Virus genome (UHGV): UHGV-1654121
Length of the DNA stretch: 12,530 nt
Reading direction: 5' to 3' (one strand)
Origin: a virus
Shown here: in pieces, positions 376-12,530 of the stretch
Numbering within the stretch: position 1 is the first letter of the stretch
Layout of the letters: every line of letters starts with the position of its first letter
Position numbers and translations under genes: made by a program
Notes under the pieces: generated by a model
The model's database searches: none
Told to the model about the DNA's origin: nothing
What the model saw: the letters and a program-made list of their open reading frames with translations, nothing else

Positions 376-408
376 CTGTACGAACAGATTAGATGCCTGT
401 TCGTACAG
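376..408 (+). promoter_or_regulatory. Perfect 12-bp inverted repeat (ctgtacgaacag N9 ctgttcgtacag) preceded by a 21-nt polypyrimidine tract; stem-loop or operator candidate
   Basis: Read directly: 376-387 ctgtacgaacag is the exact reverse complement of 397-408 ctgttcgtacag, with a 9-nt loop; 350-370 is C/T only (cacccccctcccatcctctct). No T-run follows, so it is not a canonical intrinsic terminator. Confidence 0.4.
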
Positions 409-461
409 TGATAAATTACGCACATCAGAAAACAAATTGTTTTAACAACAAGGAAATTCTA

Positions 462-2690
462 ATGTCCAAAAAAACCACCAAAGCTGTACTGAAAGAGGTG
501 CAGGATTTTCGCGACTGTGTAAAACGAGTTGTAGCGATGCTTTCAGGTAAACAGATACCTGTTGCAGAACGAGGCAATGAAGCATATGTCCGCTATAACC
601 GGCGCGGCGAACCAGTGCTGGTAAACATCCCATCTATACCGGACGACGCGTCGCCAACCCTCATGAACGTAGTGCGTGGTTTTCTCGACCATGAGGTGGC
701 CCATATTCTCTTTACTGAACCGAAAGTCGCAATGCAGATGCGCGAAAGAGGAAAGGCTCCGTCTACGGGGCTTTGGAATGCGCTGGAAGACGTTTTTATT
801 GAACGCAGAATGGGGCAGGTCTTTAACGGAACCCGGCGTAATTTACTTGCAACACAGAGTCTGGTTATCGACAAATACTTCAGGAATAAAGTACCAGAAG
901 CGGTTTTAGCCTGTCACGGAGACCAGCGTGAATTGTTTTTGAAATTCTTCCTTTGCCCGGTCGTCCGCGCCTGGGATGGACAAAGCCCCTTCATCGATTT
1001 TATGGAAGAACACTGGCGCCTTATCGAGAGGCCGGTAGCCTTACTAAAGGAGCATGGTATAGACGTGGCCGTTCGCAATATGTCGAACACTGAGGATTGC
1101 GTGAAGGTCGCTGCTGCTATAGCCCAAATCATGCAGGATATGAAAGACAAGCCAGAGGGCAAATTACCAGAACTTAAATCATCTGCCAGAAAGCCGTCGG
1201 AGAGCAAAGACGAGTCCGAGGAAACGCCAGAATCAGGTGACGAGCCGTCTCATGGTGACTCTGCATCTAAGCCTGCCAAAGGCGAAGGCGATGACAAGGA
1301 AGAACGAGAAGATGATGCATCAGAAGAGGAAGATTCTGGGGATTCCGATTTGCCTGATTCGTTAGATAAGGACTTACCTACACACGTTAAAGATATTAGT
1401 GATACAGAAAGTAAATATACAGAAGCAGGCCACGAAGAGTCAGGAGACACCCCAGAATCCGATGCTATCGGCATGAAATCAAGTGACTCTGACACCGATG
1501 GTGATGACGGTGAGGACTCCGATACTGATCGTGGGGAAACTGAAGAAGACGTCGAAGGCAAAAAAAATAAAGATGGTGCGGAAGTGCCCAAAGACAGTGA
1601 GTCTGGCTTTGTTCCTGCGCCGGATGAAATGACTCTGGAGGAGGCGCTAAAGGCGCTCGACGAGATGGAAGACGGAATCGGTGAAATGACCGAAGACGCA
1701 CTGTCGGCCACCATCAGCAAAGAGCTTATGAGCGTCTCACCTTCTGATTATCGGCCATACGATCGATCATACGACTTTATCGGGTTGATTGATGGAGCCG
1801 AAGAGCATGTGAAGCGCACCAGAAAGACGTTCGGTGCAATACCAATGCACTCACCAGTCGACCGCTACCGTATGGTGCCAGAAGGCAGAAAACTCTTTGA
1901 ACTGAAAATCGAAAAACATCTGTCTGCAGGCGTTTCTTCGACGCTGGCCAAAGACCTGGAGCGGGCCATCGCCAGCCGCAACCGAGTTCAGTTTATACCT
2001 GGTCAGAGGCGTGGGCGGATACATGGCGCGAGCCTGTATCGTCTGGCAATGAACGACGACCGAGTGTTCCGCAAGAAGGAAGACCATAGAGCGGTGAACG
2101 CGTGTGTCCAGCAGGTCATCGACTTGTCCGGCTCAATGGATGGCGTGAAGATTCAACTGGCCCTAGCCAGTGCCTATACCATTGCGGATGCTTTAGATCG
2201 TATCAATGTCCCCAACATCATCACCGGCTTTACCACGTTCGGTAGCCCAGATTATGAAACCAGGTCGAAGCGCGGGTTTACACGCTTCGAGGCGCTCATG
2301 CTGCCCATTATCAAAAACTGGAATGAGAAAGCAAACTCTCCAGAGATCCGTGCTCGCATGGGATGCGTATGTGAGACGTTCCCCCTGCTCAATAACGTCG
2401 ATGGTGAGAGTGTCGCGCAACTGGCTACCCTGTTTGCAGGGCGAATGGAGGACAAAAAGATCATGCTGGTTATGAGTGATGGGGAGCCATGTGCTACAGG
2501 TAGTGGATTCCATCAGCATTTACGAACCGTCACCAAAGAAATTGAGACCTTGAGCGACATCGAACTGATGGCTATCGGCATTCTGACCGACGAACCACGG
2601 CGTTACTACAAAAATTACGCACTGGTTAACAGTGTTGAAGAGTTAGGGCCGTCAGTCGTCACTGAGTTATCTCGTATCATTCTTGGGTAA
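462..2690 (+). CDS. CobT-like vWA-domain protein (partner of a MoxR/CobS-type AAA+ ATPase), with HExxH motif and long acidic low-complexity segment
   Basis: Start set at ATG 462 (in frame with track ORF 393..2690) because AAGGAA at 450-455 lies 6 nt upstream and the 393 ATG is buried in the 376-408 hairpin. HEVAH encoded at 690-704; D/E/S-rich low-complexity segment about 1150-1700; MIDAS-like DLSGSMDG encoded around 2121-2135 followed by vWA-like sequence (ITGFTTFG...MSDGEP). Confidence 0.75.
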   Translation: MSKKTTKAVLKEVQDFRDCVKRVVAMLSGKQIPVAERGNEAYVRYNRRGEPVLVNIPSIPDDASPTLMNVVRGFLDHEVAHILFTEPKVAMQMRERGKAPSTGLWNALEDVFIERRMGQVFNGTRRNLLATQSLVIDKYFRNKVPEAVLACHGDQRELFLKFFLCPVVRAWDGQSPFIDFMEEHWRLIERPVALLKEHGIDVAVRNMSNTEDCVKVAAAIAQIMQDMKDKPEGKLPELKSSARKPSESKDESEETPESGDEPSHGDSASKPAKGEGDDKEEREDDASEEEDSGDSDLPDSLDKDLPTHVKDISDTESKYTEAGHEESGDTPESDAIGMKSSDSDTDGDDGEDSDTDRGETEEDVEGKKNKDGAEVPKDSESGFVPAPDEMTLEEALKALDEMEDGIGEMTEDALSATISKELMSVSPSDYRPYDRSYDFIGLIDGAEEHVKRTRKTFGAIPMHSPVDRYRMVPEGRKLFELKIEKHLSAGVSSTLAKDLERAIASRNRVQFIPGQRRGRIHGASLYRLAMNDDRVFRKKEDHRAVNACVQQVIDLSGSMDGVKIQLALASAYTIADALDRINVPNIITGFTTFGSPDYETRSKRGFTRFEALMLPIIKNWNEKANSPEIRARMGCVCETFPLLNNVDGESVAQLATLFAGRMEDKKIMLVMSDGEPCATGSGFHQHLRTVTKEIETLSDIELMAIGILTDEPRRYYKNYALVNSVEELGPSVVTELSRIILG

Positions 2691-2785: not shown

Positions 2786-4021
2786 ATGACCGCTACTGCA
2801 CTACAGCAAGAAGAACATTTGCCGGAAGCCATCGTCTGCAAGTGGTGTGGCAAATCCTTTCATTACCTGAAATCCCATATCTCTATGGGCCGTTGCGAGA
2901 ATATTCCTGAGTCTGCGAAGGGTCTGGACGTGGACGAAGTGGTGAAGATGTACACCTCTGCGTTTCCAGATGAACCAACGATCTCTCGCACGGCACTGGC
3001 CAAACTCAATGAGAAGCGTGCCGAAAAAAATTCATGCGAAGGAAAGGTAGCGGAGATTAGCGCACATCCGGGCTACGCAGGAACGGTCGAATACAAGACC
3101 GAACTGGTGGCCGCGCACGAGCTGCTTGGCGTAACGATCAAAGAGCTGGGAACGCCACGCGGAAAGCCACTACAGGTGACAGTCAACGTCAACACGCCCT
3201 ATCCGGAGTTCGTACCGGAAGCGAAGAAAAACTATGTGTATGGCGACTTCGACCTGATCAAAGACATCTTTATGATGCTGGAAATCGGAATCCCGGGTTA
3301 TCTCTGGGGCCATGCAGGAACCGGTAAATCTTCTCTTCCTACGCAGCTATGTGCCCTGCTAAATCGACCACTGATCCGCGCCCAGCATACGGCATCTATG
3401 GAGGAAGCGCACGTTACAGGCCAGATCCTCGCTCGCGATGGTTCCACCTATTTCGAACCGGGTTTACTAGCGCTGGCGATGAAAAATGGTTGGGTTTACC
3501 TCGCTGATGAATATGACTTCGCGTTCCCGCAGATTCTGGGTGTGTATCAGCCAGTTCTTGAAGGAGAGCCGCTGATCATCAAAGAGGCAACTGCGGACTG
3601 GCGCCGCATCACCCCGCATAAACGCTTTGCCTTCATTGGCACTGGCAACACTAACGGCTCTGGCGACGAAACAGGTCTCTATCAAGGCACAAACATCCAG
3701 AACGCAGCGAACTTCTCGCGTTTTGGCATTGTTTCAAACGTGAAGTACATGAGTACGAAGGCAGAAGTCAACATGCTGGCTGAAGCAGGCGTCATCCGCG
3801 AATACGCCGAGAAGATGGTGAAGTTCGCGAATCTTATCCGTGAAGGTTATGAAAAGCATCAGATTAGCCAGCCAATCGGGCCTCGTGAGCTGCTGCTGTC
3901 CGCCAAAATCGGAATGATGCGCGGTGATTTCTCTGCCGGCATCGAAAAGTCGTTTATCAATAAACTTCCATCCACGTCTGCACAGGCAGCGCGTGAAGTG
4001 GTTCAGAAGATCTTTGGTTAA
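2786..4021 (+). CDS. CobS-like / MoxR-family AAA+ ATPase
   Basis: Walker A GHAGTGKS encoded at 3308-3331; downstream ...WVYLADEYDFAFPQ... consistent with a Walker B region; strong RBS; immediately downstream of the vWA partner, the usual pairing for MoxR/CobS-vWA systems. N-terminus carries a Cys/His cluster (CKWCGKSFHYLKSHISMGRC). Confidence 0.8.
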   Translation: MTATALQQEEHLPEAIVCKWCGKSFHYLKSHISMGRCENIPESAKGLDVDEVVKMYTSAFPDEPTISRTALAKLNEKRAEKNSCEGKVAEISAHPGYAGTVEYKTELVAAHELLGVTIKELGTPRGKPLQVTVNVNTPYPEFVPEAKKNYVYGDFDLIKDIFMMLEIGIPGYLWGHAGTGKSSLPTQLCALLNRPLIRAQHTASMEEAHVTGQILARDGSTYFEPGLLALAMKNGWVYLADEYDFAFPQILGVYQPVLEGEPLIIKEATADWRRITPHKRFAFIGTGNTNGSGDETGLYQGTNIQNAANFSRFGIVSNVKYMSTKAEVNMLAEAGVIREYAEKMVKFANLIREGYEKHQISQPIGPRELLLSAKIGMMRGDFSAGIEKSFINKLPSTSAQAAREVVQKIFG

Positions 4022-4023
4022 TC

Positions 4024-4227
4024 GTGCGTAAAGGATGTTTCGGCTCTCTTATCGCAGCGTCTGAAACTGGCAGTGCTTGTTTGGCATGTCCGGATAGCCC
4101 CGAGTGCCACCAGTCAGCCAAAGAGGTTGCGATTTCGATGTATGGGAAGTTCGTTGGCTTCCCCAATGACAAAATCAAGAAAACCAGAAAGGTAAAAGCA
4201 CATGAAGGCTCTGATGGTCAGAACTGA
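4024..4227 (+). CDS. Possible small Cys-rich protein (67 aa, GTG start); doubtful
   Basis: ORF begins with GTG 2 nt after the upstream stop and overlaps the polymerase start by 26 nt; contains CLACPDSPEC (CxxC...C). No convincing RBS for the GTG; internal ATG at 4138 has AAGAGG 11 nt upstream. Could equally be non-coding leader. Confidence 0.2.
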   Translation: MRKGCFGSLIAASETGSACLACPDSPECHQSAKEVAISMYGKFVGFPNDKIKKTRKVKAHEGSDGQN

Positions 4228-7200
4228 CTTCTCCCTGGGAGAGTCAGCTCTAAAAGCAGAAAACGCGATGAAAATCGCGAGAGACGCTGGCTACACCGCT
4301 GTCATTTCCGCTGACAGCATGAACATTGCCAGTGTGATCCCCCTGCAGCGTGCCGCTGGCGACGACATGGCGGTTATTTGTGGTGTTAAGCTGAATGTGG
4401 TCGACGATCCGACATACGAGCACCGCGCTCGCTTGGCGAAAGAGTCAGGAAGATGTATGGAATCATTAGTTCGTGATCGCAGCTACTGCTTCACGGCACT
4501 GATAAAGAATGAACAAGGTTATCGCGACGTGTGCGAACTGATGACCTTAGCGAACAAGCGCGAGCAATTCTACTTTGTCCCGCGTCTGGCGCTTGAGCAG
4601 CTGGCAGCCGCATATGCCAAAGGCAACATCATCCTGCTGACGTCCGACATTGGCAGTGTATTCCAGCGCCGGGACTTCGCAAAAATTATCGGGACGCTGG
4701 TCACAGCTGGCGGTCGCGATAACTTCTACAGCGTGGTTTATCCGCACCCTACCCCATTCTACGACCAGATTAACGTCCGGGCGATGAAAGTGGCGAGCGC
4801 ACTGAAAATAGAGCCAGTGGCGTTCTATCCCGCTTATTACGAAGCGATCGACGACGCTGACATTAAAGACATTGCGCACATGGTTACGAACAACATCAAA
4901 ATCGACCAGCCGCATCGTCTGCGCATCCCCCACCAGCGAGATAACGCTGTTAATGGTCGTCGCCATCTCCTTGAAGCGCTGAAAGCCTTCTCCGTTCGCA
5001 TGGGCGTACCGGTAACAGCTGCAATGGCCTCAACAACGCAGGACACCATTATTGAAGCCTGCACATGGCGCTGGCATGAACTGCCACCAGCACTGCCCAA
5101 GATGGCAGACGACGAGCCTGCAACGCTGATGAAGCTGGCTGTCGCGGGGCTACGCAAGCGTCTAACTACTAAAGAGTTTGGCTACACACCACCGGCTTCT
5201 GAGCACCGAGTGTATGTTGAGCGACTGAAGTACGAAATGGACACACTGACCCGTCTGGGCTTCTGTGGCTACTTCCTGATGGTACGCGATCTGATGAATC
5301 ACAGCCGTGAAACTGGCATTCCTGTCGGGCCAGGTCGTGGTTCCTCTGCCGGTTCTCTGGTGGCGTGGTGCATAGGCATAACCAACGTCGATCCTATCCG
5401 TCACGGTCTTCTGTTTGAGCGTTTCATCAACCCTGAACGTCTTGACTTACCGGATGCGGATCTGGACTTCAGCCAGGCACGTCGTCATGAGGTGATCGAG
5501 TATCTGAATGAACGCTATGGCGAAGATTACGTTGCCGGTATTCCAAACTTCACCTATCTGGGCGCCGCTTCTGCGCTGCGAGACACTGCGCGTATTTACG
5601 GTGTCGACGCTGCGGATATGGCGGTATCCAAAGAGTTCAAGAATCTGGAAGACGATAGCCTGTCTCTGGAAGAGCTGCGCGAGCAACTGGCCAGCCTGGA
5701 CAAATACGCCACGAAAAACCCGGAAGCGTTCAAAGCGGCGTGTAAGCTACAAAGCCTGATGCGTGGTTTTGGCCGTCATGCAGCGGGGATGATCGTCGCT
5801 GGCGTTCCACTGGTAGAGCGCACGCCCGTCGAGCTGCGTGGCAACGCTCGCTGTATTGCATTCGATAAACGTTACTGCGAGGCAATGGGGCTGATTAAGC
5901 TGGACGTTCTCGGTCTGGCAACGCTCGATCTGCTGGATAGCGCGAAACGCTACATCAAAGAGAGTACCGGGGAAGACATCAATCTCGATGCTATCCCACT
6001 GGACGATCGCAAAGTTCTGGATGGGTTCGCTGCAGGGTACACTCAGGGCGTATTCCAGCTGGAGTCCGGCCCCATGCGCAAGCTGCTTAAAGATCTGGGC
6101 GGTGGCATTGAGCCAATGAGCTTCAAAACCGTTGTCGCCACGACCGCACTCTTCCGACCTGGCCCGATTCAATCAGGCATGTTGGACGACTATGTCTCCG
6201 TGGCCAAAGGCTTCATGGCTCCACAGTCGCTGCACCCGGTACTGGACGAGCTTACCGCGGAAACCAACGGCGTGATTCTGTATCAGGAACAGACGATGAA
6301 CGCGACACGATTGCTGGCCGGCTTCACGATGGCCGAAGCAGATGGTGTGCGTAAAGCGATCGGTAAAAAGGATATGGAAAAGATGAAGAGCATGGGCGAG
6401 AAGTTCGTCGTTCAGGCTCAAGCTGGTTGGATCGACGTTGAGATGGAAGACGGCACAACGCAGCGTATTCACCGCGCGGAACACTTCAAATGTGAGGACG
6501 GCGCACTGCGGACGGTCGAAGAAGCGCTGGAGGCAGGTGTAAAATTGCCTATGGCTGCTGTACGCGTTACAGGGTCACAACCGGGCTTGTCTGAGACGAA
6601 AGCTAAGGAGATCTGGGATGCCTTCGAGAAGAACGGTGCGTATCAGTTCAACAAATCACACTCCGTTGCTTACTCGCTGATCAGCTATCAGTCTATGTGG
6701 TTAAAGACACATTACCCTGCTGAGTTCTTCGCTGCTGCGCTCACCATTCTGGGCGAGGATAAGCACCAGGGCTTAGTTAAAGATGCGCTGACCTATGGCA
6801 TTCGCGTATTGCCACCAGACGTTAACGTTTCATCTAACCGAATTGAGATCCGCACGCTGGAAGACGGCAGTCAGGTTCTGTATGCACCATTCTCTGCTGT
6901 GAAAGGCTGCTCTGAGAATGGTTGCCAGGCCATCATGAGAGCGCGTGAGAAAGTTGGCGGCAAATTCGAATCACTGGCGCAATTTGAGGAATCTGTCGAG
7001 AAGCGAGCATGTAACAGCCGGGTACGCGAGTCGCTGCAAAAAGTCGGTGCGTTCGCATCGATTGAGCCTGGCTGTCTGCCAGCGACAGATCCGGAACGGC
7101 TGCGCGACCAGGCAGAGTTGATGGGTAATCTGGTGATCGACGCTGTAAAAGCCTCTCGACCGTTCGAGATGAACCCTAAGCGCTCTGCTGAAGTAAATGT

Positions 7201-7720
7201 ACTGATGACGCGCATGGCGGCCGAAATGGGGCTGGGAGACAATCTAATCCGTCCAAGCATTGGTATTAAGCCAAAAATCATGGTTATTCTGGACAACGCG
7301 AACGGCAATGATGGGCGTACCGGCTACTTCATGGAGAACGGCTACGACGACTTTAAGGCGAAGTTGCTTACTGCCGGCGATCTGCGTATGGGCGATCTCT
7401 ACGTCACCGGCGTGTGCAAAAAGGTGAAGGACAAAGAGAAGGACTACACCAAAGACGAGATCGGTCAGTTCACCGACTTTATGCGTGAAGAGATCAATCT
7501 GGTGCGTCCGACCTATGTACTGACGTGTGGCAGCCGGGCGACGTCGCTCTTCAACAACAAGAGCAAACCATCCGACCTGGTTGGACGCAAAGAGTATCTG
7601 CCGGAGCTGGATGCGACCGTTTTCTACGGATTTAACCCGAATATCCTTTACTTCCGACCGGAAGAAGGAGAGCGACTGGAGGCCATTCTGACTGATATTG
7701 CGGAGACGATAAATAAGTAA
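4202..7720 (+). CDS. DnaE-type DNA polymerase (Pol III alpha-like catalytic subunit) with degenerate N-terminal PHP domain and atypical C-terminal domain
   Basis: Family-C polymerase signature blocks present: GPGRGSSAGSLVAWCIGIT..DP....LLFERFINPER, catalytic PDADLDF (Asp codons at 5453, 5459, 5465), AFDKRY, LYQEQTM, FNKSHSVAYSLISYQ..WLKTHYPAEF, then an HhH-like region. N-terminus (MVRTDFSLGES...AVISADS) lacks the His-x-His and TDH metal ligands of active PHP domains. The last roughly 150 aa (about 7259-7717) do not resemble the OB-fold/tau-binding tail. Confidence 0.9.
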   Translation: MKALMVRTDFSLGESALKAENAMKIARDAGYTAVISADSMNIASVIPLQRAAGDDMAVICGVKLNVVDDPTYEHRARLAKESGRCMESLVRDRSYCFTALIKNEQGYRDVCELMTLANKREQFYFVPRLALEQLAAAYAKGNIILLTSDIGSVFQRRDFAKIIGTLVTAGGRDNFYSVVYPHPTPFYDQINVRAMKVASALKIEPVAFYPAYYEAIDDADIKDIAHMVTNNIKIDQPHRLRIPHQRDNAVNGRRHLLEALKAFSVRMGVPVTAAMASTTQDTIIEACTWRWHELPPALPKMADDEPATLMKLAVAGLRKRLTTKEFGYTPPASEHRVYVERLKYEMDTLTRLGFCGYFLMVRDLMNHSRETGIPVGPGRGSSAGSLVAWCIGITNVDPIRHGLLFERFINPERLDLPDADLDFSQARRHEVIEYLNERYGEDYVAGIPNFTYLGAASALRDTARIYGVDAADMAVSKEFKNLEDDSLSLEELREQLASLDKYATKNPEAFKAACKLQSLMRGFGRHAAGMIVAGVPLVERTPVELRGNARCIAFDKRYCEAMGLIKLDVLGLATLDLLDSAKRYIKESTGEDINLDAIPLDDRKVLDGFAAGYTQGVFQLESGPMRKLLKDLGGGIEPMSFKTVVATTALFRPGPIQSGMLDDYVSVAKGFMAPQSLHPVLDELTAETNGVILYQEQTMNATRLLAGFTMAEADGVRKAIGKKDMEKMKSMGEKFVVQAQAGWIDVEMEDGTTQRIHRAEHFKCEDGALRTVEEALEAGVKLPMAAVRVTGSQPGLSETKAKEIWDAFEKNGAYQFNKSHSVAYSLISYQSMWLKTHYPAEFFAAALTILGEDKHQGLVKDALTYGIRVLPPDVNVSSNRIEIRTLEDGSQVLYAPFSAVKGCSENGCQAIMRAREKVGGKFESLAQFEESVEKRACNSRVRESLQKVGAFASIEPGCLPATDPERLRDQAELMGNLVIDAVKASRPFEMNPKRSAEVNVLMTRMAAEMGLGDNLIRPSIGIKPKIMVILDNANGNDGRTGYFMENGYDDFKAKLLTAGDLRMGDLYVTGVCKKVKDKEKDYTKDEIGQFTDFMREEINLVRPTYVLTCGSRATSLFNNKSKPSDLVGRKEYLPELDATVFYGFNPNILYFRPEEGERLEAILTDIAETINK

Positions 7721-7725
7721 TAAAG

Positions 7726-7750
7726 AAAAACCCGCCAAATGGCGGGTTTT
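7726..7750. terminator. Bidirectional rho-independent terminator between convergent genes
   Basis: aaaaa-CCCGCC-aaat-GGCGGG-tttt: 6-bp GC stem (7731-7736 / 7741-7746), 4-nt loop, A-tract upstream and T-tract downstream, placed 6 nt after the polymerase stop and overlapping the last codons of the convergent - strand gene. Confidence 0.7.
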
Positions 7751-8309
7751 ATGCGCAAATTTTTTCGCAGTCTTGCGAGTGACTGAGTGAGCGAGTAACT
7801 CTCTCCACCTCATGAATGTCGCCCAACGATCTTATACGCAGGGCAAGATTCCACGTACTCAATGTGCGCGCGTTACGCACCAGTTCTTCCCGTGCTTTTT
7901 CGTCTTTGCTGTCAAGACGACCGCAGTCGTTCAACCATTTAGCGACTTCCGCCCAGTCCCAGAGTGGAGACTGACCGCTGATACGCTGAACAGGGCAAGG
8001 AAAATCACCTTTGCCACGTAATCCGTCTTTAAGCAGAGTAATAGCCTGGCGCGTTAAGCCAGAGAGTTGAGCAATATCGCTCAAGCCTACCAGTGCTGAA
8101 TCTACCGATTCCACCACTGCGCCAATGCCTGCTGTTTCAATATCAAGGATTGCCGATTCGATTGCTTCATCTAAAGATTTAGCTTCTCGGTCAAATTCTA
8201 CATACACTGAGTTTCCGTAGTAGCAAATGAGCGCATCATCGCAACCGTGGCTATACAGAGCATCTGCGACTACACAGTACTGACTACAGGTTATCAGAAT
8301 TATCCCCAT
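7749..8309 (-). CDS. DNA-binding protein with C-terminal excisionase/AlpA-type HTH; N-terminal domain weakly HicB-like
   Basis: Only - strand gene in the window. C-terminal half LSDIAQLSGLTRQAITLLKDGLRGKGDFPCPVQRISGQSPLWDWAEVAKWL fits the HTH followed by a conserved W..EV..WL pattern seen in AlpA/excisionase-like HTH domains. N-terminal half (YSHGCDDAL...DREAKSLDEAIESAILDIE) loosely resembles the HicB-type antitoxin fold. No obvious SD upstream of the ATG at 8309. Confidence 0.55.
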   Translation of the reverse strand: MGIILITCSQYCVVADALYSHGCDDALICYYGNSVYVEFDREAKSLDEAIESAILDIETAGIGAVVESVDSALVGLSDIAQLSGLTRQAITLLKDGLRGKGDFPCPVQRISGQSPLWDWAEVAKWLNDCGRLDSKDEKAREELVRNARTLSTWNLALRIRSLGDIHEVERVTRSLSHSQDCEKICA

Positions 8310-8376
8310 TTACATCAGCTTATCTACGTCAGCCCTCAAGTTCTTCAGCAAGCCAGCTCCACCGCCTGATTCCAAC

Positions 8377-8850
8377 ATGATAAAATTGATATACGAAAAT
8401 AAGTATATAGATAACATTATGAGCACCGATATCTACGAAAAAATCATGTCCGATCTGGAGTTCGACCGCGACAATCTGGAGGAAGTCTGGCGTCAGCAAC
8501 CGCGCCTGTTGATGGAGTATGGCTCTAAGCTGGCGCGGGCAGAACGTGAGGTTGCAGATGCAAAACTCTCTCTCGACGCGATCGAGGCAAAAATCTATGA
8601 CAACGAGCGTAAGAGCTTGAGTATGAATGGAATTAAATTTAATGAATCCGTACTGGAAGCGAAGGTTAGAACCAACCCGCAATACCTCGCAAAGCGCCAG
8701 AAACTCGACGATGCTCGACACATTGCAGACCTGTACAAGCACGCTGTAGCCGCCTTCTCCCACCGCCGCGATATGATTGTCCAGGCGTCGAAGATGGCTA
8801 TCGTAGAGATAGAGCGTCTGGGGGCCGAACGATTCCATTTACCCCGTTAA
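8377..8850 (+). CDS. Coiled-coil protein, possibly a UvsY-like recombination mediator
   Basis: Charged, helix-rich 157-aa ORF co-oriented with the downstream SSB; length and coiled-coil character resemble UvsY, but no signature motif is confidently matched. Start uncertain (ATG 8377 or ATG 8419; neither has a clear SD). Preferred over the overlapping - strand ORF 8329..8838, which has antisense-like L/R/C/F-rich composition. Confidence 0.5.
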   Translation: MIKLIYENKYIDNIMSTDIYEKIMSDLEFDRDNLEEVWRQQPRLLMEYGSKLARAEREVADAKLSLDAIEAKIYDNERKSLSMNGIKFNESVLEAKVRTNPQYLAKRQKLDDARHIADLYKHAVAAFSHRRDMIVQASKMAIVEIERLGAERFHLPR

Positions 8851-8969
8851 TTTATGCTAGATAGTAAGTAAGTACTGATCTATCATTCTTCTCGCTCGAA
8901 AGAGCCACGAACAAACGAACGCCCAATGCGCATAGCGCCAATGGCCACAATCACAACAAGGAGAAATAC

Positions 8970-9986
8970 ATGTCTAAGTCATTACTTGATCTGCTTAACA
9001 AGACCCGTGGCGATATTGCTTCCAAACGTGGCAATAACATTGATTTGACCCGTCTGAAAGATGGCAATAACTATCTGCGCATTTTTCCGAACAAGGACGA
9101 TCCGAATGGCGTGTTCTTCCAGACTTTCGGTATGCACTACGTTAAGCATCAGAATGAGGAAGGCAAAGATGTAACCACCGCCTATATCTGCGAACAACAC
9201 ACCCACGGCCACGCTTGCCAGCTGTGTGAGATGGTTATGGAAGGTCGCGCTCGCTTTAAGGGCAACAAAGCGATGGAAGAGCGCATTAATAGTATGCGTG
9301 CTACGCCGCGTTATCTGGTCAACGGTGTTCTGTCTGCGCGTGAAGACTTTGCGGACGCAGAGAAATGCCAGCTGATTGAGCTGCCGTCTACGGTCTTCGA
9401 CGATATCTGCAAAGTGATGTCCGAAGATATTGCGGACGATATTGGCAACCCACTGAGCAAAGAAGAAGGCTATGCGTTCCTGATTAAACGCACCGGTTCC
9501 GGTCGTGACACCAAGTACGACGTATCCCCGAAACGTAAAGTCTACAAAGGCGACATTCCTGAGAAGCTCTGGACTACCCAACACGATCTGATCGCATATG
9601 CGAACCAGGCTGACGAAACTCGTTTGCTGTCCACGGCTCGCACTATGGGTCGTCTGATTGGTATTGCGGCTCCGGCAGCAACTATGTCCTCACCAGCCAT
9701 TTCTTCCGCTGCAAAATCAGCCGCAGCTGGACTGCCAGGCTTTGGCTCTATCACTGGTCATACGGAAGGCGCAGCTGCTGTCGCTACAGCACATACTCCG
9801 GCGCCAGAGTCCACCAGCCTGGTTGATGAAGAGATCCTGCGTGCCGCTGAAGCTGAGTTCAAACCGGAAGAAGCGAAAGCTCCGGAAGCCACCGAAGCCG
9901 CAAGTGCTTCAGCATCTGCTGCCGCTGCATCTGTACCAGCTGATGAAGGTCTCGATAACCTGCTGGCTGAACTGGACGCTCTGTAA
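8970..9986 (+). CDS. T4 gp32-like single-stranded DNA-binding protein
   Basis: AAGGAG at 8958-8963 with a 6-nt spacer. N-terminal block LRIFPNKDDPNGVFF and His/Cys cluster H60...C74-x8-C83-x2-C86 (encoded about 9147-9227) parallel the gp32 Zn-binding subdomain (H-x12-C-x9-C-x2-C in T4). Ala/Ser-rich linker and acidic C-terminal tail (...DEGLDNLLAELDAL) are typical of SSB partner-interaction tails. Confidence 0.8.
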   Translation: MSKSLLDLLNKTRGDIASKRGNNIDLTRLKDGNNYLRIFPNKDDPNGVFFQTFGMHYVKHQNEEGKDVTTAYICEQHTHGHACQLCEMVMEGRARFKGNKAMEERINSMRATPRYLVNGVLSAREDFADAEKCQLIELPSTVFDDICKVMSEDIADDIGNPLSKEEGYAFLIKRTGSGRDTKYDVSPKRKVYKGDIPEKLWTTQHDLIAYANQADETRLLSTARTMGRLIGIAAPAATMSSPAISSAAKSAAAGLPGFGSITGHTEGAAAVATAHTPAPESTSLVDEEILRAAEAEFKPEEAKAPEATEAASASASAAAASVPADEGLDNLLAELDAL

Positions 9987-10002
9987 TCCCATAACGTGAC
10001 CA

Positions 10003-10031
10003 GTAAGGCGTCTGCGGACGCCTTACTTTTT
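10003..10031 (+). terminator. Rho-independent terminator downstream of the SSB gene
   Basis: gtaaggcgtc-tgcg-gacgccttac followed by ttttt: 10-bp stem (10003-10012 / 10017-10026), 4-nt loop, T-run 10027-10031; located 17 nt after the SSB stop codon. Confidence 0.75.
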
Positions 10032-10046
10032 GGAAGGAGTGTACCG

Positions 10047-10991
10047 GTGAATTATCTCTTTGTGGACGGTAACAGCCTGGGCTATTACCACCAGCAATCC
10101 GACAAATTACACAACGGCGAGATGGAAGTTCAGGCGGCTTTTGGCTTCGTGAAGAACGTTCGTCGTTACGCCTCAATTCTCCATGCCCGGCCAATGATCT
10201 TGTGGGATGGATTCAGCGACAAACGTCGCGACTTCTACCCGGAGTACAAAGCGAACCGCGACGACGACCCGGACATGAAGAAGATGAAAGAAGGCTTTGC
10301 CATCCAGAAGCCGTACATCTTGAAAATGATGACCGCGCTGGGCGTTAACCAACTCATTGCAAAGGACGCAGAAGCGGATGACCTGGCTGGAATGCTGGTC
10401 TCTCGTCTGGCTCCGCAGCCGACTGTTGACCATATCTATCTGCTAACGGGCGATGGCGACTGGCTCCAGCTTGTTCGTGAGAACGTGAGCTGGATAAGCC
10501 TGCGTGAAGACGCCAAGCACAAGCAGGTGAACTTCGAACAGTTCGCAGAGCTGACCGGTCTGCCGACCCCACGCGCGTTTCTGGAAGCGAAAGCGTTGCA
10601 GGGCGATAACTCGGACAACATCAAAGGCGTAGGTGGCATTGGTGATGGTGGCGCGAAAGAGCTGCTTCATGAATGGGGAAGCGTGGCCGCAATGGTACGC
10701 GGCATTAACGACGGTTCCATTGTCATCAACAAAGGTCGCTATAAGACGGCATTCAACAAGCTGGCAAAGAACGCCTTCAACGAGAAGACGGGCTGCCGGA
10801 TGCTCGAAGCCTTTAAGCGCAACATGATGCTGATGAACCTTATCGACACAAAATTCCCACCCAGCGAAATCGAGTCGATTAAAGGCGCACGCGATATGAG
10901 CGCCTTTGAACAGATGTGTTACGAGCTGAATTTCCGTTCGTTTCTGGAAGATCTGGAAGTGTTTGTTCTGCCGTTTGAGAGGTATTGCTGA
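10047..10991 (+). CDS. 5'-3' exonuclease / flap endonuclease (FEN, T4 RNase H / Pol I 5'-exo family)
   Basis: Conserved FEN blocks: (M)NYLFVDGNSLGYY, ILWDGFSDKRRDFYPEYKANRDD, EADDLAGML, LLTGDGDWLQLV, H3TH-like GDNSDNIKGVGGIG. Start placed at GTG 10047 (GGAAGGAG at 10032-10039, 7-nt spacer) rather than track start 9996, because the intervening sequence is the 10003-10031 terminator. Confidence 0.85.
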   Translation: MNYLFVDGNSLGYYHQQSDKLHNGEMEVQAAFGFVKNVRRYASILHARPMILWDGFSDKRRDFYPEYKANRDDDPDMKKMKEGFAIQKPYILKMMTALGVNQLIAKDAEADDLAGMLVSRLAPQPTVDHIYLLTGDGDWLQLVRENVSWISLREDAKHKQVNFEQFAELTGLPTPRAFLEAKALQGDNSDNIKGVGGIGDGGAKELLHEWGSVAAMVRGINDGSIVINKGRYKTAFNKLAKNAFNEKTGCRMLEAFKRNMMLMNLIDTKFPPSEIESIKGARDMSAFEQMCYELNFRSFLEDLEVFVLPFERYC

Positions 10992-11257
10992 TGCTGAAAT
11001 CCATCATTAATGGCGGGGCAACTACGCCAACCATGCTGGCAAAGGAGATTGTTTTCTGCCACGGCGAGCACGCTGTGGTAGCGCTGCCGAACATTCTGGG
11101 CGCTGCTGGCATTTCTGCTACTGAGCGTGAGTTCGCGCTGGTCAGTGAGCAGGTCGTGAAGATCATCGCTCGCGTCGCCAAACACCTGAACCACGACGCA
11201 ATCAAGTTTGACGAAGCCGCTGCTTCGAAGCGAATCAACGAATCAAAAGGAGCCTAA
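10991..11257 (+). CDS. Small hypothetical protein (88 aa from the ATG)
   Basis: ATG at 10991 overlaps the FEN stop codon (TGATG, 1-nt overlap), suggesting translational coupling; ends 2 nt before the recombinase RBS/start. Track lists it from TTG 10985. No recognisable motif. Confidence 0.45.
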   Translation: MLKSIINGGATTPTMLAKEIVFCHGEHAVVALPNILGAAGISATEREFALVSEQVVKIIARVAKHLNHDAIKFDEAAASKRINESKGA

Positions 11258-11259
11258 TC

Positions 11260-12530
11260 ATGGCAAAAGGCAAATCCGCACTGGCACTGGCGCTGAAAAA
11301 GAAAATCGGCAGCAATGACGAGATTCAGAAGGTCTCCCACTGGATTGACTCCGGTTTCCCTCCACTGAACAAAGCCATTTCCGGACGTTACGACGGTGGT
11401 TTTCCGTGTGGGCGTATCGTTGAAGTCTTCGGGCCACCAAGCGCGGGGAAATGTGTTACCGCAGACACCATGCTGCTGACGGAGCGTGGAATGGTAACAG
11501 TGAAAGAACTGTTTGAGATTGAGGGGCACAAAGCAACATGCACTACTCGCGATGTAGAGCATAACGTTGGACTCATCAATGAAAATGGCGTGATAGAGAA
11601 GACCTCACACCTGACATGGAACAACCGTCGCAAATTCAAGCGCATTAAGCTGGCATCAGGGGGTTACATCGAGGCTACGTTCCGTCACCCAATTCGTGTG
11701 GTTGACGACTTAGGCAATATCGTCTGGCGGTATGCTGAAAAAATCAGTGTAGGCGACACGATTCCTTCAATGGTTGGCACACATCAATTCGGCGATCAGC
11801 ACTTGGATGCCAATATCGCAAAACTGATGGGCTATTTAATTGCTGACGGATACGTGGCCTCTGAAAATTCTGTGCATTTTTCTAACACAGCTCCATTCAT
11901 CAAGGATGAGTACTACCGCCTCATTTCGCTGGTATCAGACAAGATGCCAGTTACGAGAAAACATAACGGCTCGGAAGACCATGTGCTGTTTAGCAAAGAG
12001 GTGCGTTCGCTGCTTTTTAAAGAATATGGTCTGGAGTATGAGAAAGCTGCTTGCAAGCAGGTTCAGTTGAGTGTGCGTCGCGCCAATAGCGAGGCTCAAA
12101 TTGCATTCCTTCGCGGCTACTTTGAGCTGGAATGCCACGTCAATGATGGTCGCTGCATTGAGGTTGTGAGCGCGAGTGGGCTGCTGCTACAGCAAATTCG
12201 CCTCATGCTCCTGAATCTGGGGATTGCGTCAACTATCTCTGAAAAACACGTCGCAGGTTATAAAAACATATATTACCGGCTGTCATTCAGTGGCTCTAAC
12301 TACGACCTTTTCCTGTCAACGATTGGGTTCGAGTCTCCGGCTCGTTTAGCAGTGGCAACCAAACGGGACATTAGTTTTGACCGCACTTATTTAGGCTACG
12401 TTCCGCACATCAGCGGCTTAGTGAAATCACTCTACGAGTCACTCACCAAGACCTCTCGTAAAGACTACGTTCTGGTAGATCACGTTCTTGGCCGCGGCGA
12501 TCGTGTCGGAATAGACAAACTGCGAGAAAT
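11260..12530 (+). CDS. RecA-like recombinase, N-extein plus intein-interrupted P-loop (partial; continues beyond window)
   Basis: AAGGAG at 11247-11252, ATG 11260. N-extein ...GFPCGRIVEVFGPPSAGK closely parallels bacterial RecA GRIVEIYGPESSGKT; the reading frame stays open to the window end. After GK the sequence switches to intein blocks (see mobile_element). Confidence 0.85.
   Translation, partial: MAKGKSALALALKKKIGSNDEIQKVSHWIDSGFPPLNKAISGRYDGGFPCGRIVEVFGPPSAGKCVTADTMLLTERGMVTVKELFEIEGHKATCTTRDVEHNVGLINENGVIEKTSHLTWNNRRKFKRIKLASGGYIEATFRHPIRVVDDLGNIVWRYAEKISVGDTIPSMVGTHQFGDQHLDANIAKLMGYLIADGYVASENSVHFSNTAPFIKDEYYRLISLVSDKMPVTRKHNGSEDHVLFSKEVRSLLFKEYGLEYEKAACKQVQLSVRRANSEAQIAFLRGYFELECHVNDGRCIEVVSASGLLLQQIRLMLLNLGIASTISEKHVAGYKNIYYRLSFSGSNYDLFLSTIGFESPARLAVATKRDISFDRTYLGYVPHISGLVKSLYESLTKTSRKDYVLVDHVLGRGDRVGIDKLRE
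11452..12530 (+). mobile_element. Intein with LAGLIDADG homing-endonuclease domain inserted in the Walker A (P-loop) of the recombinase (partial; C-terminal splice junction outside window)
   Basis: Intein block A starts at Cys codon TGT 11452-11454 (CVTADTMLLTERGMVTVKEL); block B-like GGYIEATFRHPIRV (T..H); LAGLIDADG motif 1 KLMGYLIADGYV (about 11824-11856); motif 2 AFLRGYFELECHV (about 12103-12135). Insertion directly after GPPSAGK implies the missing Thr of GKT is the +1 C-extein nucleophile. Confidence 0.8.

Follow-up and report, generated by a model that had tools for sequence, protein, structure and literature searches.

A lone minus-strand gene in the replication module of an SSU5-like phage-plasmid as the deletion remnant of a two-gene cassette

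In the window, by which we mean the whole 12,530-nt stretch of DNA analyzed here, a single gene (open reading frame [ORF] 7749..8309) runs against its neighbors. We are almost certain that it is what a deletion left of a two-gene cassette. Comparison with relatives reveals that a deletion occurred, which elements it took away, and in which direction the locus changed. Since the gene is the beheaded leftover of a cassette that is intact in relatives, it points to ordinary gene decay and not to a new regulator. The explanation as a whole, a truncated remnant without promoter or partner that is silent and decaying, we consider probable. Annotations such as "DNA-binding protein," "HTH regulator," or "excisionase" should accordingly be corrected to truncated remnant, and a false lead on the regulation of replication genes is thereby removed.

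The window belongs to an SSU5-like Escherichia coli phage-plasmid. It shares 91% identity with Salmonella phage SSU5. The 12.5-kb window also matches 32 IncFIB "plasmids" with 99.1 to 99.5% identity; these come from E. coli, E. fergusonii, and Shigella and are phage-plasmids of the SSU5 type. All neighbors of ORF 7749..8309 within the window are located on the plus strand and constitute a replication and recombination block (Table 1). A RecA-like gene on the same strand begins near the window end and is missing from the ORF list because it runs past that end. ORF 7749..8309 is the one minus-strand ORF in the window that both is gene-sized and has homologues, as the first-pass annotation had recognized in describing a lone inverted gene within a codirectional replication module.

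Table 1. Features of the window and their coordinates
Feature	Position	Strand	Description
CobT-like gene	393-2690	+	
AAA/CobS-like gene	2786-4021	+	
dnaE	4202-7720	+	DNA polymerase III alpha, 1172 aa; left border of variable interval
Second presence/absence junction	7720..7729		426-bp DUF7740 gene (SSU5_053) absent
Intrinsic-terminator hairpin	7727..7750	both directions	Common to dnaE (+) and remnant (-)
186-aa ORF	7749..8309	-	5'-truncated large gene of two-gene cassette; phrog_2620, PDC-M06B, alignment A2
Winged helix-turn-helix (predicted)	7932..8087	-	Intact in remnant (window residues ~75-126); AF2 homologue model, weak Phage_AlpA matches, PHROG cross-hits
Deletion junction	8259..8269		Imperfect microhomology GCATCTGCGAC; parental sites left GCGTCTGCGAG, right GCATCTACGGC
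Present ATG and 12 further codons	8271..8309	-	MGIILITCSQYCV; unrelated to family; from DNA upstream of small gene in SSU5
Retained spacer	8310..8418		Distal piece of old cassette upstream region, also 5' of uvsY-like gene; no palindrome, no convincing minus-strand promoter
UvsY-like gene (phrog_2058)	8419-8850, alternative start 8377	+	Right border of variable interval
gp32-type SSB gene	8970-9986	+	
5'-3' exonuclease gene	9996-10991	+	

The protein encoded by ORF 7749..8309 belongs to the large-gene family of the cassette. It matched phrog_2620 with an E value of 4.6e-85, covering profile positions 14 to 187 only, and the PADLOC profile PDC-M06B with an E value of 2.3e-28, covering positions 21 to 163 of 174. 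By these two matches, coding on the minus strand is certain. A plus-strand gene corresponding to the antisense ORF 7812..8021 was also sought in relatives, and none was annotated in SSU5, Cyrano, pMT1, or the PGAP-annotated plasmids. The first 13 to 20 profile positions remained without a match because the gene is truncated. Homologues of the large gene, which are widespread in Enterobacterales, encode approximately 185 to 193 aa. The N terminus MxLYNFTLTLSGV..EGLEDALY is nearly invariant in 24 of them and has been replaced in the window lineage alone.

In relatives, the large gene is nearly always found just downstream of a gene encoding 74 to 82 aa (phrog_5923/PDC-M06A). At the dnaE/uvsY-like locus the intact pair is carried by SSU5, Cyrano, pNT1F34-108k, and Yersinia pestis pMT1; in SSU5, the minus strand encodes the 78-aa SSU5_055 followed by the 192-aa SSU5_054. 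The small proteins of the relatives match PDC-M06A with E values down to 5e-22. Elsewhere, a small gene (74 to 82 aa) lies 28 to 78 nt upstream of a large one (about 186 aa) in three settings: among the T4SS genes of an ICE, between the opp and DUF440 genes of a Morganella chromosome, and in an integrase-flanked genomic island. Counts of small and large genes in PLSDB, obtained by tblastn, were 81/82 for Enterobacter, 63/63 for Yersinia, 20/20 for Citrobacter, 13/13 for Klebsiella, and 8/8 for Cronobacter. Escherichia was the exception with 80/114, the surplus of large genes being the window lineage. The small and the large gene form one unit. Five loci in different hosts, all of them intact or near-intact cassettes, have in common a TTGACA-17-TAnnAT promoter whose -35 element is covered by the palindrome GTTGAC-N4-GTCAAC, together with a GGAGG ribosome-binding site; the SSU5 version of this arrangement is imperfect.

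The pair phrog_5923 and phrog_2620 is equivalent to the PADLOC phage-defense candidate PDC-M06 (A + B). The PDC systems are candidates picked by "guilt-by-embedding" (Payne et al., bioRxiv 10.1101/2024.01.29.577857). Order and spacing of PDC-M06 are shared by the cassettes of SSU5, Cyrano, and pMT1, and the window protein matches component B. Unlike PDC-M06, however, the window holds only a 5'-truncated B gene, without the A gene and without a promoter.

The deletion is apparent from the alignment with SSU5. Window positions 7720 to 8269 align to positions 4158 to 4710 of the SSU5 locus (L001) and window positions 8253 to 9000 to positions 5146 to 5894, the two alignments overlapping at the microhomology GCATCTGCGAC. 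Compared with SSU5 and pNT1F34-108k, the window lacks approximately 452 to 454 bp. As arranged in SSU5, the absent segment comprises SSU5_055, the promoter TTGACT-17-TATTAT, an imperfect palindrome, a GAGGAG ribosome-binding site, and codons 1 to 19 of SSU5_054, which encode strand beta1 of the N-terminal domain. No Shine-Dalgarno sequence precedes the present ATG at 8309. The first-pass annotation had remarked that no HicA partner was visible, and indeed a PDC-M06A gene (74 to 82 aa, same strand) adjacent upstream is absent from 8310-8418 and from the whole window. This is not a natural solo state, however, since the event that deleted the partner also took the promoter, the palindrome, and the first 19 codons of the large gene. 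The opposite polarity, in which the short form is ancestral, was considered and rejected, because both the family N terminus and the pairing of the two genes have been conserved across unrelated contexts.

The AF2 model of a full-length SSU5-type large protein (pLDDT 80) predicts three regions. Residues 2 to 77 would form an N-terminal domain of the order beta-alpha-beta-beta-alpha-beta (pLDDT ~90). Residues 82 to 134 comprise helices 82-89 and 93-98, a wing, and helix 125-134, and the C terminus consists of two long helices. The large gene is labeled "putative antitoxin HicB" in the Cyrano record and "excisionase and transcriptional regulator" in the SSU5 RefSeq record. Searches of Pfam and NCBIfam with the window protein, its SSU5 and Cyrano homologues, and the small proteins returned no significant family, and profile searches of the small and large families against PDB sequences returned nothing.

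The proposal of a weakly HicB-like N-terminal domain was not borne out. None of the 26 large-protein members matched a HicB-related Pfam family at an E value of 10 or less, and hhalign of alignment A2 against the single sequence of E. coli HicB (6hpb_B) gave a probability of 0.3%. Foldseek with the N-terminal domain retrieved ferredoxin-like, ACT, and PII folds, with no HicB chain among the top 50. Neither profile similarity to HicB nor a HicB-type N-terminal fold was thus found for the large protein. The companion proposal of an AlpA/excisionase-type HTH was weakly supported. Phage_AlpA matched residues 81 to 132 of protein P0001 weakly, and E values of 0.025 to 0.08, under the Pfam threshold, were obtained for 9 of 26 family members, in agreement with the modeled HTH and wing; PHROG cross-hits of the large gene were to excisionase/regulator families. 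A Pfam match above threshold was not obtained, and the window protein itself gave no Phage_AlpA match at an E value of 0.1 or less. Given the Pfam, Foldseek, and hhalign results, an AlpA-type HTH can be proposed tentatively and a HicB-like domain cannot.

The small protein of the intact cassette was modeled by AF2 (pLDDT 85) with the order alpha-beta-beta-beta-alpha, and its predicted fold appears closest to that of HicA toxins. No significant match to the PDB was obtained by Foldseek with this model (best E value, 0.82), nor was profile similarity to HicA detected by Pfam or by hhalign against the single E. coli HicA sequence. The motif G-x-S-x-H is conserved in the small proteins (alignment A4) and, judging from this alignment, parallels the HicA motif of the literature. 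In the same alignment (P0121 numbering), K8, H30, C37, H46, and C71 are invariant and H5, P6, N7, and H43 nearly so. The conservation pattern of C37, H43, H46, and C71 suggests a possible metal site foreign to canonical HicA toxins. Weak matches to the Pfam family RuBisCO_small were observed for P0183 and for 28 of 35 small proteins (best E value among all matches, 1.2e-4). Homology to this family was rejected, the match being judged a short local helix-strand motif (IeYAlxkGW). A Shewanella NCBI record named "ribulose bisphosphate carboxylase small subunit" is likely a misannotation arising from this motif.

Several features of the intact cassette fit a toxin-antitoxin (TA) module: the small gene comes first, its partner is predicted to bind DNA, the promoter is palindromic, and the pair has moved across unrelated contexts. 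From these features we infer toxin and antitoxin roles within the intact cassette. Compared with the HicAB systems of E. coli (6HPB) and Streptococcus pneumoniae (HicBA, 5YRZ), however, no similarity to HicA or HicB exists at the profile level. Unlike HicB, the large protein has an N-terminal domain that is predicted to be ferredoxin-like and a DNA-binding domain of the AlpA/MerR-like winged HTH type instead of RHH or Xre; unlike HicA, the small protein carries the extra conserved Cys/His cluster. The window further differs from HicAB in that the toxin gene is missing. With these features in favor and the missing profile similarity against, the cassette would work like a HicAB-type module but was not filed as a HicAB member. 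The intact Cyrano cassette is expressed in the lysogen, CYRAN_50 and CYRAN_51 being 14-fold and 30-fold, respectively, above prophage background in LF82 lysogens (PMC9928086).

The small gene has been lost a second time, in plasmid pYLMB53a (NZ_CP073940.1). Here, the promoter and the full-length large gene were kept, and of the small gene just 13 codons at the N-terminal end and 7 at the C-terminal end survive. In place of about 166 bp inside the small gene, a near-perfect palindrome of about 59 bp is present (L015:1309-1367), which consists of CATCTTAACTTCCAAAGGGTACTCCCGCC, a TTATGTC loop, and the reverse complement. The small gene was therefore lost twice independently, in the window lineage and in pYLMB53a, with the large gene kept on both occasions, which is the pattern expected of a toxin. 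Decaying TA loci leave orphan or degraded antitoxin genes behind after toxin loss, and the two cases resemble such loci in that the toxin gene is gone and the antitoxin gene is kept. Unlike in decayed TA loci, the deletion in the window also took the promoter and the 5' end of the antitoxin gene. For this reason, a functional solo antitoxin is less likely in the window than in pYLMB53a.

The intact PDC-M06 pair can now be described as a small protein of predicted HicA fold, with a conserved Cys/His cluster, and a non-HicB winged-HTH partner, under a conserved promoter with its palindrome. Y. pestis pMT1 carries this pair, as do 108 of 5,426 complete E. coli genomes. In strain KIM10+ (NC_004838.1 92949-93836, L033), the two genes are labeled only "hypothetical protein" and "DNA-binding protein." A literature search for PDC-M06, or for pMT1 together with HicA, found no characterization.

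We propose the following course of events. The ancestor would have carried a two-gene accessory cassette on the minus strand between dnaE and the uvsY-like gene, transcribed from a TTGACA-17-TAnnAT promoter with GTTGAC-N4-GTCAAC over its -35 element. Its small gene (74 to 82 aa) would have encoded a HicA-fold protein, the presumed toxin, and its large gene a protein of ~190 aa composed of a beta-alpha-beta-beta-alpha-beta domain at the N terminus, a winged HTH, and helices at the C terminus, presumably acting as antitoxin and autorepressor. A deletion of about 452 bp between short imperfect repeats then removed the promoter, the palindrome, the small gene, the ribosome-binding site of the large gene, and its first 19 codons, and an in-frame ATG supplied by old upstream DNA keeps the 186-aa ORF open. 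Lacking promoter, Shine-Dalgarno sequence, operator, and partner, the remnant would most likely be poorly expressed or silent and be drifting toward a pseudogene.

Silence and decay of the remnant, taken on their own, are likely. Four of 33 near-identical PLSDB records lack a CDS annotation for the gene, and all four carry 1-bp deletions in the ORF, which is open in the other 29. Two frameshift events are involved, one at 7760 (one record) and one at 7880 (three plasmids from different sources), and the flanking genes are intact in the frameshifted records. Because both frameshifts occurred in short homopolymers, the one at 7760, seen in a single record, may be a sequencing error. Among 13 aligned sequences, three synonymous and three nonsynonymous single-nucleotide polymorphisms (SNPs) were counted, numbers too small to distinguish relaxed from purifying selection. 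There were eight polymorphic sites in the 561 bp of the ORF compared with nine in 321 bp and seven in 281 bp of the flanks, so that the polymorphism density of the ORF was not above that of the flanks. Because the lineage is young, drift and weak selection are inseparable by these counts. Since the DNA-binding half is intact, the remnant may retain some low-level activity. One further copy, in a 5.2-Mb contig of E. coli (CP125919.1, L028; protein P0008), contains the junction peptide …ITCSQYCV… with many substitutions. Its gp32 and exonuclease genes are shortened and its dnaE is not called; it is probably either an assembly rich in errors or a phage-plasmid that has integrated and is decaying, and P0008 was left out of the evidence on selection.

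A functional orphan, in which the truncated protein is made and acts in trans on PDC-M06 cassettes of coresident or incoming elements, is the best of the alternatives and is nevertheless unlikely. Such a protein might repress GTTGAC-N4-GTCAAC promoters or neutralize the HicA-fold toxin and thereby serve in anti-addiction or anti-defense. In keeping with this, the winged HTH and the C-terminal helices are intact, and most PLSDB records have the ORF open. About 1,960 indexed sample blocks contain the exact 186-aa protein, in every case with its gene flanked by dnaE and the uvsY-like gene; this number may reflect just a recent, successful lineage. The intact Cyrano-type cassette also circulates in the same species, in 108 of 5,426 complete E. 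coli genomes, compared with 22 for the window junction; all 108 and 22 copies are on plasmids. On the other hand, the gene has lost its native promoter and ribosome-binding site, the domain presumed to bind the toxin has lost strand beta1, and two independent frameshift events were tolerated. Furthermore, the remnant and a detectable intact cassette were never found in one complete E. coli genome, each matching genome having one place. We regard it as more improbable still that truncated protein made at a low level acts on the PDC-M06 cassettes of competing phage-plasmids, ICEs, or host islands, either by trans-dominant repression or as a decoy. If true, the trans-acting remnant would be an anti-addiction or anti-defense factor and could help explain the wide spread of the lineage.

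It had also been suggested that the gene regulates the flanking replication genes and that a 67-bp divergent region at 8310-8376 is its operator or promoter. The length of 67 bp holds if the next gene starts at 8377; with the start at 8419, as given by PGAP and the SSU5 record, the spacer measures 109 bp. No inverted repeats were found in the spacer, and a search of all 12.5 kb of the window that allowed up to two mismatches found no GTTGAC-N4-GTCAAC. The single sigma-70-like match in 7600-8500 (TAGATA-16-GATAAT, 9/12, 8326->8299) places its -10 element within the ORF, downstream of the ATG at 8309, and one observed match compares with a mean of 1.1 in shuffled sequence. Since the promoter and palindrome were deleted, 8310-8376 is not the operator or promoter of this gene. 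A dedicated regulator of dnaE, the uvsY-like gene, and ssb that acts via this spacer is thus very improbable. Its position between dnaE and the uvsY-like gene, divergent from the latter, is all that recommends it, whereas its family palindrome is missing, relatives do without the gene, and elsewhere the family and its small partner reside in ICEs and chromosomes far from replication genes.

The interval itself argues in the same direction. In PhiR41_1 the site is empty, dnaE being followed directly by the uvsY-like gene, and in pJN2-26 it is filled by a DUF7740 gene and a cold-shock gene instead. SSU5 and pMT1 carry the DUF7740 gene (on the plus strand in SSU5) and the pair, and Cyrano carries an unannotated cold-shock ORF and the pair. 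The Cyrano ORF, of the CspA type (L003:5025-5336, minus strand; …MTGLVKWFNSDKGFGFISP…), was noticed in an 850-bp "empty" stretch from dnaE to the HicB-like gene. Being occupied, swapped, or empty among relatives, the dnaE to uvsY-like interval is a site of accessory ("moron") gene insertion, and its variability speaks against a regulator devoted to the replication genes. The idea of a moron-like insertion, raised in the first-pass annotation, agrees with this synteny, including the full cassettes of SSU5, Cyrano, pNT1F34-108k, and pMT1. In SSU5, pMT1, and Cyrano-type elements, the interval can therefore be read as empty or as holding a cold-shock gene, a DUF7740 gene, a PDC-M06 pair, or remnants.

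An AlpA/Xis-type excisionase or recombination directionality factor, which the weak resemblance to Phage_AlpA and PHROG excisionase/regulator families would suggest, is scarcely credible, since all scores fall under the Pfam threshold (13.2 bits for the SSU5 homologue versus a gathering cutoff of 21), no integrase or attachment site is nearby in what is an extrachromosomal phage-plasmid, the constant partner is a small HicA-fold gene and not an integrase, and the protein, far from being short and single-domain, has an extra N-terminal domain and long C-terminal helices that are both missing in Xis proteins.

On the dnaE side, the deletion remnant ends at a hairpin (Table 1) that has perfect 11-nt arms, lies 7 nt past the dnaE stop, and shares 2 nt with the TAA stop of the remnant. 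Its folding energy is -17.0 kcal/mol on the plus and -16.5 kcal/mol on the minus strand (z-scores of -4.0 and -3.8, respectively). Because U-runs flank it on either side and it folds on both strands, the earlier reading of a bidirectional terminator at the gene end is reasonable; a consensus terminator scan called the hairpin on the minus strand only. The loop (7738-7739) reads AAAT in the window versus the reverse complement, ATTT, in 12 of 12 aligned close relatives. This flip is specific to the window, the rest of the hairpin being identical. In SSU5, pJN2-26, and pMT1, the DUF7740 gene sits between dnaE and the hairpin, and in the window the hairpin directly follows dnaE because that gene is absent. 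In SSU5, ATAAAG stands at either end of the piece that the window lacks.

Rfam and tRNA scans of the window gave no matches. Residues ~1055 to 1122 of DnaE match the UDG superfamily weakly (PF03167, E value of 0.026). This match sits in the C-terminal extension of about 200 aa of the phage-plasmid DnaE, to which a UDG-like domain may be fused. The CobT-like protein contains a long acidic, Ser/Asp/Glu-rich low-complexity insert at residues ~255 to 440, between its CobT and CobT_C/VWA domains. Finally, the element is mosaic: similarity to SSU5 ends 252 nt into window positions 11200 to 12530, whereas that to Cyrano, PhiR41_1, and vB_KpnS_p4727 goes on at 94 to 97% through the RecA-like gene.
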